Below are positions 57,013 through 62,416 of a stretch of 64,000 nt of DNA, one piece after another. Source of the DNA: Pseudomonadota bacterium (GTDB lineage: Bacteria; Bdellovibrionota_B; Oligoflexia; Oligoflexales; CAIYRB01); NCBI GenBank assembly GCA_026390435.1, contig JAPLFY010000040.1, forward strand, positions 40,223 to 104,222, read 5' to 3'. A program made the position numbers and the translations under genes. The first letter of the stretch is position 1. Each line of letters begins with the position of its first letter. The notes under the pieces were generated by a model. The model worked only from the letters and a program-made list of their open reading frames with translations. It did no database searches and was not told where the DNA came from.

Positions 57013-58335
57013 TTACACTGCATCGCGCACATTGTGCGGATCCGAAGGACTGTCACAAGACATAAACTGCGTGCTAGACGTTAAGTCCGCTGCAGGTTCA
57101 GCCGCACACTCGTTTGACGTTATCAGACTAGCTACACGTAAAATCGACTCATCTGCATAATACGCGACCTGCCGCATTGGACTTATAGCATTGTCGATAG
57201 CTAGCCTAAATTGGTCAGGAAATTTGAAGCTCGCTGCGATTTGATCAATAATCAGAGCAATGCTATCTGCAGTCGAAATTGATTCTGAAACAAGCTTCGC
57301 CAGTACGGACGAAGTCACTTTCGCAGGCCCAATTAGACGCTGAACCTCAGCATCCAATAGCTCCATTTTTGCCAGGTTCGCCCTCACTATGGTCTCGAGC
57401 AACTCAGAAATCTTTGCCAATGAATCGGGAAATGTCCCCACCATTTGGCTAGCTTCGAGAGACGTGAAACTCACTCGATCAGAAATTTTAATCAACTCTT
57501 CCGCAACAGCACGGAAGACACGTTCCTCGCCCCCGCCACGAGCGAGGCCAATCGTCGTATTGAGTAGTAATAAATTTGCTTGATCTGAAATCGCTTGAAT
57601 ATCCTCAGCTACTTTACTCATCATCGCCTTGTCGCCATTAAGACGGCGAACCAACACAGTGAGCTCCTCGCTCGATTGCCGATGAATCTTAAAAGTTTCA
57701 GCAACCTCGCTCAGAACCTGGAATGCTCCAGATAAAACAGCTGCCAATGATGATAGATCACGCACACCAGATGCATAAATATTTTTACCCGAGAATTGGG
57801 TGCTGATCTCTTCTGTAGCCGCAAGATGCTCGCGAGATTTTTTATAAACATCAGCCACTTGCGCAACTATCACCGCTGATTGATTCTCAACTTGATCAAC
57901 CACGGCCTTTACTCGCAATTCGACTTCTGGCACTAATGCAGTGACCCGCTGCATAGCTATAATCTGTTCCGCAAGAAGTTCATCGCGATCGCTAATTTTC
58001 TTTTTCAAATTTTCCATTTCGTCTTTTAAAACTGAGTCATCTTGTGTGGGTGGCACTGAAGCTGCGGCAACAGGCTGAGAAAAACGTAACAACTCTGCCT
58101 CTAATTTAGCTAATTGCAGGCGAGCCTCCCGCAACTCCTGCCGTTCCTCCGCTGCTAGCGAATCAAATCGAGATGCGCCCCCAGCGATTATTAAACAAAA
58201 TAGCCAGAGTGACATGGCCGAAACCAGCATAAAAAAATTAGGCAGGCTTATTAACGAATTCAGAGCAATCATACCTACTGGAATAGCCGCAATCCAGCCC
58301 ACCAACCATACGTTCCTCAAGACCCGATTGGACAT
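57013..58335 (-). CDS. membrane protein with a degenerate methyl-accepting-chemotaxis (MCP) signalling-like domain
   Basis: Two N-terminal TM helices, a coiled coil, then ISDQANLLLLNTTIGLARGGGEERVFRAVAEELIKIS. That segment aligns with the canonical [37 protein letters not shown], but with a diverged hairpin tip. Confidence 0.55.
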   Translation of the reverse strand: MSNRVLRNVWLVGWIAAIPVGMIALNSLISLPNFFMLVSAMSLWLFCLIIAGGASRFDSLAAEERQELREARLQLAKLEAELLRFSQPVAAASVPPTQDDSVLKDEMENLKKKISDRDELLAEQIIAMQRVTALVPEVELRVKAVVDQVENQSAVIVAQVADVYKKSREHLAATEEISTQFSGKNIYASGVRDLSSLAAVLSGAFQVLSEVAETFKIHRQSSEELTVLVRRLNGDKAMMSKVAEDIQAISDQANLLLLNTTIGLARGGGEERVFRAVAEELIKISDRVSFTSLEASQMVGTFPDSLAKISELLETIVRANLAKMELLDAEVQRLIGPAKVTSSVLAKLVSESISTADSIALIIDQIAASFKFPDQFRLAIDNAISPMRQVAYYADESILRVASLITSNECAAEPAADLTSSTQFMSCDSPSDPHNVRDAV

Positions 58336-58347
58336 GAATATGCCTCA

Positions 58348-60651
58348 CTAATTCCATAAATTTTCGAATTCTGTACGGGTCGGATCTAAACGCGCCTTGG
58401 CAAAGGCTACTTCTGGAGCACTAGGTCCGCCCTTGTCCCTAATAGCCTCCCAAAGTTTACGCGCTTCCTCGGTTGCACCGGCATCGTAAACATACTCGGA
58501 AACGGTCCAATATTGATGCAGATATGCACCATTCAATGGCCAACTTTGCCGCTGGAGATACCTGTCTGCAATTACCTTAGGTTTCATTTTTTTGAGATGT
58601 TCGGCTTCTAGATCAAGTAACGACTGTGCACACGATTCGTCAGTCTGAAATAAATCTGGCATAAACTTATTAATTAAACGATCAGCCCCCTTTTGAACAA
58701 TCTCAGCATACAAAGGGCCAGCCGCGTTCAAACGTGACAACAATGGATATTCGACATCACAAGCATAATCTGAATTTTTCTCACCAAAGTGTCGCGCCAA
58801 GTTAAGCAACCAGATTAGGTGTCCGGGGTCTGAGGTGATTTCGCGCATACGCGTGACATAGGAATCGACCAAGTCGTCACTTTTGATTGTCCACTTTCGA
58901 TTTTTTAGCTCGGCTTGATTGTGATGATCTCTGTCTTTCCAGATCTTCGCCTTAGACTGACTCAGCATTTCTGCCGTTACCACCGCTAAGCGAAGTCGTT
59001 TCAAATCGGAATCCGCAGTTTTTGCGTAAGCATCCCAAAATTCAGTCGCCGACTTAGCACGGTTAATATCCGCATAGGCAACAAACAAGCGCTTAGCCAA
59101 GTCCGGTGTAACTTTAGGAAACAACGTCTTGCGATTTTTCTCGAAAAAACTCAGCGCCCTATAAATATCACCATCTTTAAAATATTTTTCTATGTGAGTA
59201 GCTTGATAAGCCCGCACCGGCTCGGAAAATGATTTCAAAAAATCTGAACTCGGATAGGCATCTGAGAACTGCGCAACACGCTGGAGCATACCAGCTGTTC
59301 GCTCGCGTTGCGTATAAGACCCCACCTGACATGCCCAAGCCAACTCTTTCATCTGACCAGGCATGTCACCGCCCAGCTTTGCTTGCTCTAGAAGTTCCCG
59401 AGCATGCTTAACGTTATTGCCTTGATAGAAGGGCAGCTCGAGACAAGCCTCACGCACAAGTGCTAAGCGACCTGGCAAACTCGATTTAAAATCATGCGCC
59501 ACCTTAAAATACTCGAGTTTTGCCTCTTCAATTTTATTCTGAGCCAAGTAGGCATCGGCCAAGCGCAGAGACGCCCAGGACAGATATTCAGCTGTCAGGG
59601 GCTCGTTCACCTTATTTTGATTGTCAGTCCCATGAATGGCGAAATGAAGCATTTTCTGTGCTTCAGAAAAGCGCCCTAACCAAAAGAGAGACTCTGCCCT
59701 TAAAACCAATTGCGAGGGGTTTATTTGCTGCAAGTGAACGTCAAGGCTAGCCGCAAGACCGTAAGCATCCTCAGCTAGCTCATAATTGTTCAGATCGTAA
59801 TAGATATCTCCAACCCTAGCGAATGCTATGGCTGCTTTTTCTGGCAATCGGTCCTGCCGAATGGCTGTGTCCAGTTCCTGAACAGCCTCTAAATAAGATC
59901 TATTCTTAATAAAAGATTCAGCAATAAGCCTGTGAAATTCAGAGCGGAGGTCAGTACGACCAGTCTTCCGCAGATAATTTAATCCCGTCGTTGCGGCACC
60001 AAAAGCGCCATCAAATCGATTATAGCGCCAATAGATTGCCGCCAGATTATAGAGACCCTTGGGGGTAACGGCCTCAACAAGTGCATCGGGCTGATCAGCC
60101 TTTACGATGAATGCCCAACTAAAAAAAGTACCAGCGTTAGACATGCTCTTACGCACATCTGGAGCTTCATAGTCTAGATGCCCAGTACTCATTAACTGAT
60201 CAGCAATATTCAGAAAGGAGAGTCCGACAAAGTAATCATTGCGACGGTGAAATGGATACTTGTTACCGTAACGAGCGCGACCACTAAGCCAGGTGGCCTT
60301 AGCCTCTTTAATATTACCCTCAAGGAAAAGTAGTCGACCTCGATTGAGATGATCGATAGCGCGCCCATCTCCCTTAGTCGCCGGCATCTCTATCTTGGCG
60401 TCATCTAATGAAGCGTGGATAGGAAATTCCACTTTCGGCAAAACGAATGGGTAATGCCAGAATATTTCTCGCGAAATGTCCCGGGTTTCCTCTTTCTGAT
60501 TGAAGTCCGCAACGAAGCTATAGCGATCAAGAATTTGATCAACCGATTGCTTACTACCAGATGCCCAGGAAGAGCTCCCGGCAATAAGCAGTATCAACCC
60601 AATCAGCCATTTACTCCGGAGCACTGGAAGTCTCGCGATTGTAATCCACAT
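58348..60651 (-). CDS. secreted TPR-repeat protein encoded in the stator operon
   Basis: Signal peptide (LIGLILLIAGSSSWA) and many TPR-like helical repeats (..AEDAYGLAA.., ..ADAYLAQNKIEEAKLEYFKV..). The start is ambiguous (TTG 60660, ATG 60651 or GVG 60624). All three choices overlap motB. Confidence 0.7.
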   Translation of the reverse strand: MWITIARLPVLRSKWLIGLILLIAGSSSWASGSKQSVDQILDRYSFVADFNQKEETRDISREIFWHYPFVLPKVEFPIHASLDDAKIEMPATKGDGRAIDHLNRGRLLFLEGNIKEAKATWLSGRARYGNKYPFHRRNDYFVGLSFLNIADQLMSTGHLDYEAPDVRKSMSNAGTFFSWAFIVKADQPDALVEAVTPKGLYNLAAIYWRYNRFDGAFGAATTGLNYLRKTGRTDLRSEFHRLIAESFIKNRSYLEAVQELDTAIRQDRLPEKAAIAFARVGDIYYDLNNYELAEDAYGLAASLDVHLQQINPSQLVLRAESLFWLGRFSEAQKMLHFAIHGTDNQNKVNEPLTAEYLSWASLRLADAYLAQNKIEEAKLEYFKVAHDFKSSLPGRLALVREACLELPFYQGNNVKHARELLEQAKLGGDMPGQMKELAWACQVGSYTQRERTAGMLQRVAQFSDAYPSSDFLKSFSEPVRAYQATHIEKYFKDGDIYRALSFFEKNRKTLFPKVTPDLAKRLFVAYADINRAKSATEFWDAYAKTADSDLKRLRLAVVTAEMLSQSKAKIWKDRDHHNQAELKNRKWTIKSDDLVDSYVTRMREITSDPGHLIWLLNLARHFGEKNSDYACDVEYPLLSRLNAAGPLYAEIVQKGADRLINKFMPDLFQTDESCAQSLLDLEAEHLKKMKPKVIADRYLQRQSWPLNGAYLHQYWTVSEYVYDAGATEEARKLWEAIRDKGGPSAPEVAFAKARLDPTRTEFENLWN

Positions 60652-62181: not shown

Positions 62182-62206
62182 AATTAATGGCTCCGCTTAG
62201 CGCGGT

Positions 62207-62416
62207 TTATTTGGGCGAGGATGCTGCTTTGGCTTGAACTAGGAGGTTCACTCTGTATTGTAGCACGCGGCTATCGATTTCTTCTAGCGACTCGCGCACA
62301 ATGAGACTATCGCCGTTCAGGAACGAGATTACACTGTCAGGCGTCGCCTCGATGTACTTGATGGCATCGAGACTGACAAGAAGCAGGGAATTATCCAGTC
62401 GAGTCACGCGGATCAC
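62207..62416 (-). CDS. flbD: flagellar protein FlbD
   Basis: MIRVTRLDNSLLLVSLDAIKYIEATPDSVISFLNGDSLIVRESLEEI matches the FlbD consensus (MI.LTRLNG...N..LIE.IEATPDTVI.L.NG.K..V.ES.EE). Confidence 0.85.
   Translation of the reverse strand: MIRVTRLDNSLLLVSLDAIKYIEATPDSVISFLNGDSLIVRESLEEIDSRVLQYRVNLLVQAKAASSPK

Follow-up and report, generated by a model that had tools for sequence, protein, structure and literature searches.

Five co-directional genes, arranged head to tail on the minus strand at positions 57013-62416 of a 64-kb window (the whole stretch of DNA analysed, part of contig JAPLFY010000040.1), make up a flagellar stator operon that stands alone, in an uncultured bacterium of the Oligoflexales (Bdellovibrionota) from freshwater. 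Behind flbD, motA and motB stand a gene for a putatively secreted protein built of tetratricopeptide repeats (TPRs) and a gene derived from a methyl-accepting chemotaxis protein (MCP). The TPR protein is very probably associated with the stator and, on balance, is probably a periplasmic protein of the PflA/MotC/MotK/FlcA kind that scaffolds stators or helps to assemble them, because its gene shows deep and reciprocal synteny with stator genes, its family is small and constrained, its predicted fold is a solenoid, and there is precedent for such proteins in the literature. The last gene encodes a chemoreceptor that is decaying or has been repurposed in this lineage, and it is not a core or conserved part of the motor, because many lineages that carry the TPR gene have no MCP gene at that place.

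An earlier note on this DNA had described the five-gene arrangement, with a 5-nt gap between motA and motB, an overlap between motB and the TPR gene and a 12-nt gap before the last gene, and all of this was confirmed. The operon and the features within it are as follows.

62207-62416, minus: flbD, 69 amino acids (aa), small protein of the SwrD/FlbD family
61423-62181, minus: motA, 252 aa, stator channel subunit
60611-61417, minus: motB, 268 aa, stator plug and peptidoglycan-binding subunit
58348-60624, minus: TPR gene, 758 aa from GTG 60624 (alternative start TTG 60660, giving 770 aa at 58348-60660)
60556-60624, minus: signal-peptide-like N-terminus of the TPR protein, MLRSKWLIGLILLIAGSSSWA/SG, with the slash at the cleavage site predicted from the sequence
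57013-58335, minus: MCP-like gene, degenerate MCP descendant, 440 aa
58171-58311, minus: N-terminal transmembrane (TM) hairpin of the MCP-like protein, residues ~9-55, from Kyte-Doolittle segments
57472-57576, minus: decayed hairpin tip of the MCP-like protein, NLLLLNTTIGLARGGGEERVFRAVAEELIKISDRV, residues 254-288, placed by alignment with orthologues

The three stator genes are of flagellar type. FlbD belongs to the FlbD/SwrD family (PF06289, 63.8 bits against a gathering cutoff of 24.7), and MotA is a flagellar equivalog, scoring 244.7 bits against a cutoff of 237 with the NCBIfam model NF006583 ("flagellar motor protein"). MotA also matched MotA_ExbB (PF01618, 98.8 bits against 22.9) and MotA_N (PF20560, 42.4 bits against 27.3), and has four hydrophobic segments. 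MotB has the make-up of a flagellar MotB, with MotB_plug (PF13677, 57 bits), OmpA (PF00691, 58 bits) and a TM segment (...SYADMVTLL...) that carries the conserved Asp; the ratio of nonsynonymous to synonymous substitution rates (dN/dS) of its gene was 0.004-0.02. A MotB subtype could not be assigned, since the best NCBIfam model, MotD (NF006541), reached 145.9 bits against a cutoff of 283. A Zorya (ZorAB) identity was rejected: MotA had no ZorA match, and the ZorB match was confined to the generic OmpA-like residues 184-258 of MotB.

Synteny, sequence family and fold of the TPR protein

We compared 46 loci, taken from a pattern scan with one genome per species, by tblastn with the window proteins. 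The upstream sequence was missing in six of them, and in all 40 assessable genome loci the TPR gene follows flbD or flbD-motAB. In 20 of the 46, motB lies directly 5' of the TPR gene (17 of these with the full flbD-motA-motB order), and in another 20, from the Oligoflexus and Pseudobacteriovorax clades, flbD lies directly 5' and motAB is absent from the locus (L014, L016, L018-L024, L028, L030 and L044; and L009-L013, L015, L036 and L038). The flbD gene was on the same strand as the TPR gene, and upstream of it, in 37 genome loci. The order of stator genes and TPR gene is also kept, the TPR gene overlapping its neighbour or lying no more than 24 nt from it, in distant family members that score 88-340 bits against the profile: three of them, at 88-125 bits, have flbD-motA-motB-TPR, and the member P0191, at 340 bits, has motA-motB-TPR. 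In one family member of 970 aa, flbD is followed by two other genes and then by the TPR gene. The synteny test on which the earlier note had staked its proposal thus came out strongly in favour of the TPR gene: linkage to flbD or flbD-motAB held in the 40 assessable loci, and the gene order held even at 88-125 bits.

The reverse test gave the same picture. Two MotA orthologues lay outside the listed TPR matches, and both had a TPR gene after motB; the homologue search with MotA as query had returned matches of at least 72% identity only. On a neighbour-joining tree of the TPR proteins, which lacks bootstrap support, the two groups without motAB fell in different clades. This suggests, as an indication only, that motAB left the locus twice and that the flbD-TPR pair was retained. 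FlbD/SwrD raises motor power in Bacillus, and its binding to MotA has been predicted, although not shown (PMC13232269); the persistent pairing of flbD with the TPR gene is therefore consistent with a shared stator-related role.

Two side observations concern these loci. An exbB-exbD-exbD cluster lies 0.2-3.5 kb downstream of flbD-motA-motB-TPR in distant members (L048:10540-12287, L050:12632-14357 and L051:13579-15411), where two different motor systems of the 5:2 type are therefore neighbours. At L054:6830-8985 the TPR gene is split across two frames near residue 165 and called as genes of 112 and 511 aa in this close relative, which points to a frameshift pseudogene or else to a fault in the assembly.

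The earlier note had given the TPR protein as 770 aa. The gene is real, but the protein is probably 758 aa long, starting at GTG 60624, because a 99%-identical homologue (P0001) has 758 aa, as against the 770 of the reading frame from TTG 60660, and because this start yields the signal-like N-terminus MLRSKWLIGLILLIAGSSSWA/SG. The overlap with the 3' end of motB would then be 14 nt, not 50 nt. In domain searches the protein scored just above threshold with TPR_1 (29.4 bits against 27.8), and beyond generic TPR models no Pfam or NCBIfam family matched it. Sub-threshold NCBIfam matches to YbgF, PilW and PorW/SprE were all far under their cutoffs, and there was a weak SycD/LcrH-type match (E 8e-5). 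The family is small and sharply bounded: an exhaustive profile search found 238 representatives among 1.84 billion at E ≤ 1e-3. More than 200 homologues are 750-800 aa in length, with a few longer members of 870-970 aa that score ~75 bits in the family profile search; the named ones come from Oligoflexus tunisiensis, other Oligoflexus spp., Pseudobacteriovorax and metagenome-assembled genomes (MAGs) of Bdellovibrionota. An alignment of 62 sequences has 52 invariant columns and ~70 more that are at least 90% conserved, and all four Cys residues of the protein are invariant in it. Relative to three close relatives the gene had a dN/dS of 0.04-0.08, i.e., it is under strong purifying selection.

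An AlphaFold2 (AF2) model of the TPR protein, with a mean predicted local distance difference test score (pLDDT) of 90.4, is an all-alpha solenoid of ~37 helices spanning residues 88-757. Residues 14-24, in the signal-like segment, have a pLDDT below 50, and the N-terminus contains no 19-residue hydrophobic segment of TM grade. Residues ~35-75 are modelled as ordered but non-helical, and precede the solenoid. This segment is confidently modelled and highly conserved, with D40, R48, F55, W56 and Y58 invariant and F41 nearly so; it may occupy the protein's own TPR groove or form an interface for a partner, recalling the PflB-binding linker of PflA. When the model was compared with the PDB using Foldseek, 9hmf_K ranked first (E 4.9e-8, TM-score 0.34). 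This is a 773-residue chain of the periplasmic motor scaffold of Campylobacter jejuni, comprising PflA residues 16-788 (PMC12222027). The modelled fold is best described as a long TPR solenoid, and its likeness to PflA is no more than suggestive.

The MCP-derived last gene

The product of the last gene has two hydrophobic segments within residues 9-55, separated by a loop of ~8 residues, which agrees with the two TM helices and near-absence of a periplasmic loop that the earlier note had described. The diverged tip that it quoted, GLARGGGEERVFRAVAEEL, is present, and the protein scores 30.7 bits with MCPsignal (PF00015), under the gathering score of 34.6, and so is not recognized as an MCP by Pfam. 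In a phmmer search it nevertheless matched canonical MCPs encoded directly after the TPR gene elsewhere, with E values of 1e-35 to 1e-64. Sequence and position together mark the gene as a genuine MCP descendant.

By phmmer and by hidden Markov model searches of the loci, a homologue lies directly 3' of the TPR gene in most Oligoflexales loci, and the two genes are adjacent in more than 30. These positional orthologues score 101-115 bits on PF00015, and the homologues are mostly 530-600 aa in length (range 439-600). The canonical ones share a two-TM hairpin with a minimal loop, lack any recognisable sensor domain, and carry a conserved GDVL(L/F)F at the C-terminus. In the receptors of L003, L008, L014, L028, L033 and L040 this ending follows a low-complexity tail, and it is missing from L007 and from the clade of the window; it may serve as a tether for adaptation enzymes. 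Because the orthologues at the same position are canonical MCPs, the ancestral role of the last gene is, as judged from these comparisons, chemoreception.

The clade of the window comprises the window itself, L001, L053, L054 and P0121-P0125, whose MCP-like proteins are 70-97% identical and all 440 aa in length. They lack a coiled-coil segment of ~80 aa and the C-terminal tail. Their tip reads NTTIGLARGGGEERVFRAVAEELI, compared with NAAIE[AS]ARAGEHG[RK]GF in 22 orthologue loci, so that the conserved tip is not retained. Decay of the tip in this clade looks progressive, because the less-derived members P0124 and P0125 keep "RGF". The receptor of L007 is also short (439 aa) but has a canonical tip.

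Estimates of dN/dS for this gene were as follows.

Whole gene: window clade, 0.22; canonical orthologue pairs, 0.07-0.08
Tip: window clade, 0.28-0.52; canonical orthologue pairs, 0-0.02
TM hairpin or first 70 codons: window clade, 0.05-0.18; canonical orthologue pairs, 0.16-0.17

The MCP-like gene is under relaxed selection, and the usual constraint on the kinase-control tip is gone. In two of three close comparisons the TM hairpin was the most constrained part of the gene (0.05-0.06, with 0.18 in the third). The possibility that it is a pseudogene was rejected, given an intact 440-aa reading frame in five lineages and the dN/dS of 0.22. The earlier note had argued that the diverged tip spoke against normal coupling to CheA and CheW and for a recruited role at the motor. 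The former fits the finding that selection is most relaxed at the tip, a finding that does not establish the latter, recruitment to the motor. An AF2 model of the protein from a six-sequence alignment was uninformative (pLDDT 38).

In a second clade (L009-L013, L015 and L038; e.g., L013:9242-10492) the same position is taken by a protein of 416-464 aa, again with a two-TM hairpin. It has no Pfam MCP match, but hhalign aligned it with the signalling region of MCPs (95.5% probability, E 1.5e-8); an eight-residue deletion removes AGEHGRGF. Loss of the tip is confined to these two clades. On the TPR tree, lineages with canonical receptors separate this Pseudobacteriovorax-like clade from that of the window, and because they intervene the two tip losses are apparently independent, the second clade having undergone the more extreme decay.

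Conservation of the five-gene order, which the earlier note had proposed to check, was not borne out for the MCP-like gene. No MCP gene follows the TPR gene in at least seven Oligoflexales loci, nor in any of the distant family members. At L040:9272-10978 (minus) a canonical MCP gene is inverted and converges on the TPR gene, 16 nt away, so that the two are adjacent but not co-transcribed. At L027:9374-9898 and L041:9463-9921 the gene after the TPR gene encodes a conserved non-MCP protein of 152-174 aa (…FRQQTCRNHN.VKL.SRARKLATRTF…), whose family is unassigned.

Proposed mechanism, alternatives and genomic setting

In the mechanism that we propose, MotA and MotB form the ion-driven stator, and FlbD is a factor of the SwrD type, which raises stator output in Bacillus. 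Translation of the TPR gene is probably coupled to that of motB, because the gene overlaps the end of motB. Its product, a solenoid of ~735 aa with ~18 helical hairpins and probably two disulfides, would be exported by the Sec pathway. It would sit beside the periplasmic domain of MotB and serve to scaffold, position or stabilise the stator units that surround the rotor, a task that falls to PflA/PflB, MotC, MotK and FlcA in other phyla. The MCP-like gene descends from an MCP that was anchored in the membrane but had no sensor, and that is found together with the stator-TPR module in many Oligoflexales. In the clade of the window this MCP has lost its kinase-control tip, the ~80-aa coiled-coil segment and the C-terminal tail, and because of these losses it probably no longer couples to CheA and CheW; it is kept, under weaker selection, as an intact membrane-anchored coiled coil.

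Several points weigh against this proposal. Twenty loci, including that of O. tunisiensis, which has been described as non-motile with no flagella observed (PMC4179278), keep flbD and the TPR gene with no motAB at the locus, and other flagellar and che genes are absent from the 64-kb window and from the related loci. The model of the TPR protein has no beta domain (no strands of three or more residues), so that the N-terminal beta-sandwich of PflA is absent. A profile of 14 family sequences, compared with all PDB chains, showed no sequence similarity to any of them, PflA and PflB included, and retrieved no motor protein at E ≤ 10. In the Foldseek search IFT-A, Ctr9 and Ski3 (E ~1e-7) and designed TPR proteins came within one order of magnitude of 9hmf_K, for which the TM-score was only 0.34. 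In addition, we infer the export and the disulfides of the TPR protein, and likewise the loss of coupling to CheA and CheW, from sequence, and the placement of the TPR protein at the motor is a prediction.

The linkage to stator genes might also be explained if the TPR protein acted in the periplasm as a dedicated chaperone or assembly factor, whether for MotB or for the insertion of stators, being needed transiently and not as a stoichiometric ring or spoke. Synteny and the overlap with motB fit this too, TPR domains are commonly found in chaperones, the weak SycD/LcrH-type match points the same way, and MotE of Sinorhizobium meliloti was initially reported to be a MotC chaperone (PMC13023049). 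However, the protein, a rigid solenoid of 750-800 aa in which ~120 positions are invariant or nearly so, would be large for a chaperone, and the characterised analogues proved to be structural (PMC12222027, PMC11870540), so that we regard this explanation as unlikely. It is very unlikely that the flbD-motAB-TPR module powers or anchors some envelope machine other than the flagellum, with the TPR protein as its periplasmic adaptor, because MotA exceeds the NCBIfam cutoff for the flagellar equivalog and carries MotA_N, MotB carries MotB_plug, no ZorA match was found for MotA, and FlbD is known only from flagellar systems (PMC13232269). An FD111-like bacterium of the Oligoflexales bears a single flagellum (PMC12865303), and even in O. 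tunisiensis 125 genes are assigned to cell motility by COG (PMC5154148). This explanation would nevertheless account for an operon that never adjoins other flagellar genes, either in the window or at related loci, for the exbB-exbD-exbD genes near the operon in distant members, and for the persistence of flbD-TPR in O. tunisiensis, where flagella and motility were not observed (PMC4179278). Finally, the sub-threshold matches to YbgF, PilW and PorW/SprE, and the many unrelated TPR proteins retrieved by Foldseek, would be expected of a TPR factor with a general role in the envelope, like YbgF/CpoB, BamD or PilW, and with a merely accidental link to the stator. Such a factor is extremely unlikely: the linkage survives divergence to profile scores of ~90-125 bits and what look like two separate losses of motAB from the locus, the overlap between motB and the TPR gene is conserved, and the NCBIfam matches fall far under their cutoffs.

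For the last gene, the alternative is that the MCP-like protein was recruited, through its TM hairpin and coiled coil, as a structural or regulatory part of the stator-TPR module that works independently of CheA and CheW. The gene has stayed intact at 440 aa over lineages with a dS of up to 0.8, its dN/dS of 0.22 is far below 1, its TM hairpin shows the tightest constraint within the gene in two of three comparisons (0.05-0.06), and an MCP gene adjoins the TPR gene in more than 30 loci; the second clade, moreover, lost the tip independently, by its 8-aa deletion, and kept the gene downstream of the TPR gene. Yet the threefold relaxation of selection fits decay equally well, and the AF2 model (pLDDT 38) adds nothing. 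At least seven Oligoflexales loci and all of the distant members have no MCP gene there, so that the module can do without it; the majority of orthologues are canonical MCPs whose tip is invariant, and in L040 the gene is inverted. We therefore hold recruitment to be improbable. A broader form of this idea is decidedly unlikely, namely that in at least two clades, that of the window and the Pseudobacteriovorax-like one with its eight-residue tip deletion, an MCP became a membrane-anchored coiled coil that is independent of CheA and CheW and cooperates with the stator, with FlbD or with the TPR scaffold, e.g., by regulating stator recruitment; such a protein would represent a new class of motor accessory derived from MCPs.

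Should the TPR protein prove to be a stator scaffold, it would add a sequence-distinct and very tightly linked example, from the poorly studied class Oligoflexia of the Bdellovibrionota, to the emerging picture in which periplasmic TPR spokes are present in most flagellar motors beyond the Escherichia coli model. Its linkage is unusually clean, in that the gene overlaps motB and stays with flbD after motAB has departed, and so offers a good test of co-evolution of a scaffold with MotB and FlbD. The receptors provide a series for studies of decay or repurposing, running from canonical, through short with a canonical tip and tip substitutions, to deletion of the tip. The findings on the stator, TPR and MCP genes do not overturn current understanding.

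The operon is bounded by the following features.

62527-63618, plus: prfB, with PCRF and RF-1 domains; divergent upstream boundary, outside the operon
56018-56992, plus: gene for a membrane protein of the PF03601 family (the L053 orthologue carries PF03601); convergent downstream boundary, outside the operon
62455-62484, minus: sigma-70-like promoter match (TTGACA, 18 nt, TACCAT) in the divergent spacer between prfB and flbD

The promoter match agrees with the consensus at 10 of 12 positions and is the best within 56800-62700, although this is a consensus match only and the number of sites in the promoter and terminator scan was not above that in shuffled sequence. The same scan revealed no convincing internal terminators at the gene junctions inside the operon, and an Rfam scan found four tRNAs only, with no match inside the operon. 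The rest of the 64-kb window has a housekeeping character, with genes for 2-oxoglutarate dehydrogenase, suf genes, amylases and tRNAs. Among the genome loci the closest, L001, belongs to a MAG from a freshwater lake; its neighbouring genes are 93-98% identical and its MCP-like gene 83%. The divergent pairing of prfB with flbD occurs in 36 loci, and beyond prfB, in L053 and L054, lies a conserved prkA-DUF444-spoVR (yeaG-yeaH-ycgB-like) operon, which the window stops short of. Elsewhere in the window there are a bactofilin gene (1187-2131), a reading frame with a C-terminal HicA toxin domain (18223-18858), and a region of low GC content (24001-26000; 0.446 compared with ~0.51) around an unannotated reading frame of 344 aa.

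Comparison with known systems

Periplasmic TPR scaffolds for stators are an established class that continues to grow and that has been treated as widespread (PMC11870540, PMC13023049, PMC5758724). They are known from Campylobacter and Helicobacter, where PflA forms spokes and PflB a rim (PMC12222027, PMC12054838). In S. meliloti and Cereibacter sphaeroides, MotC and MotK, respectively, act on MotB together with MotE, and MotC, MotK, PflA and FlcB have been grouped as TPR partners of stators and the E-ring (PMC13023049). A TPR protein is encoded near flagellar genes in ~52% of flagellated species, which has been interpreted in terms of ancient PflA-like spokes (Feng et al., PMC11870540), and sequence conservation is absent across this PflA-like class (PMC11870540).

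The Oligoflexales TPR protein resembles PflA in being putatively secreted, 770-820 aa in size and made up almost entirely of TPR-like hairpins (16-17 repeats in PflA, ~18 in the Oligoflexales protein), in its best fold match in the PDB (9hmf_K), in its genetic tie to stators, and in its proposed positioning of MotB. It has the predicted signal peptide and long TPR superhelix of the PflA type, although generic TPR proteins score nearly as well in the fold search, and it is encoded next to flagellar genes, which by the working definition of that class (PMC11870540) counts it as a member. Stricter definitions would leave it out: it shows no sequence homology to PflA or PflB, and it lacks the N-terminal beta-sandwich, or AMIN-like domain, and the PflB-binding linker; unlike PflB, it has neither a TM segment nor a beta-pair. 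Its gene overlaps motB, whereas C. jejuni pflA lies outside the motAB operon, and no FlgY-like partner was seen in the Oligoflexales locus.

With MotC and MotK it would share a periplasmic location, a TPR-rich make-up, a requirement for stator function and an interaction with MotB (PMC13023049). It differs in that an AMIN domain is found in MotK, and both MotC and MotK work with MotE, of the FlgY family, which was not found in the Oligoflexales locus. S. meliloti motC lies directly downstream of motB, as does the TPR gene in Oligoflexales, and MotC is much smaller, at ~430 aa. FlcA (BB0326) and FlcB of Borrelia burgdorferi are likewise large TPR proteins needed for stator assembly, and the motor operon of that species is also ordered flbD-motA-motB; they differ in belonging to a spirochaete-specific collar built with FlbB, and their genes do not directly follow motB.

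Within the same phylum, a flagellar operon of Bdellovibrio encodes a proposed PflA-like protein with a signal sequence and TPRs that has been speculated to form an inner-membrane-proximal ring near the ~12 stators (Chaban et al. 2018, PMC5758724). The protein of Bdellovibrio bacteriovorus, WP_011165745.1, shares with ours a signal sequence, predicted in our case, a long TPR stretch and a place in a flagellar operon (PMC5758724), but as compared by description only it is larger (~1000 aa) and has a reported TM helix. The earlier note had chosen MotX of the Vibrio T-ring for comparison, which is likewise built of helical repeats, lies in the periplasm and takes part in anchoring stators. MotX is small, has Sel1 repeats and works with MotY, and a MotX/Sel1 identity of the TPR protein was rejected, since no Sel1 or MotX family matched it at E ≤ 1 in Pfam or NCBIfam; PflA/PflB, MotC, MotK and FlcA/FlcB are closer analogues.

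Like canonical transmembrane MCPs, the MCP-like protein keeps the two-TM hairpin and a long helical cytoplasmic region, and it has no periplasmic ligand-binding domain, a feature that it shares with its canonical orthologues. It departs from canonical MCPs in a tip where the E, A, E, G and G residues have been replaced, and in its lack of ~80 aa of coiled coil and of the C-terminal GDVLLF tail. Among known systems the TPR protein belongs to a class that is already recognised, and the most original finding is that a receptor linked to the stator has lost its tip repeatedly.

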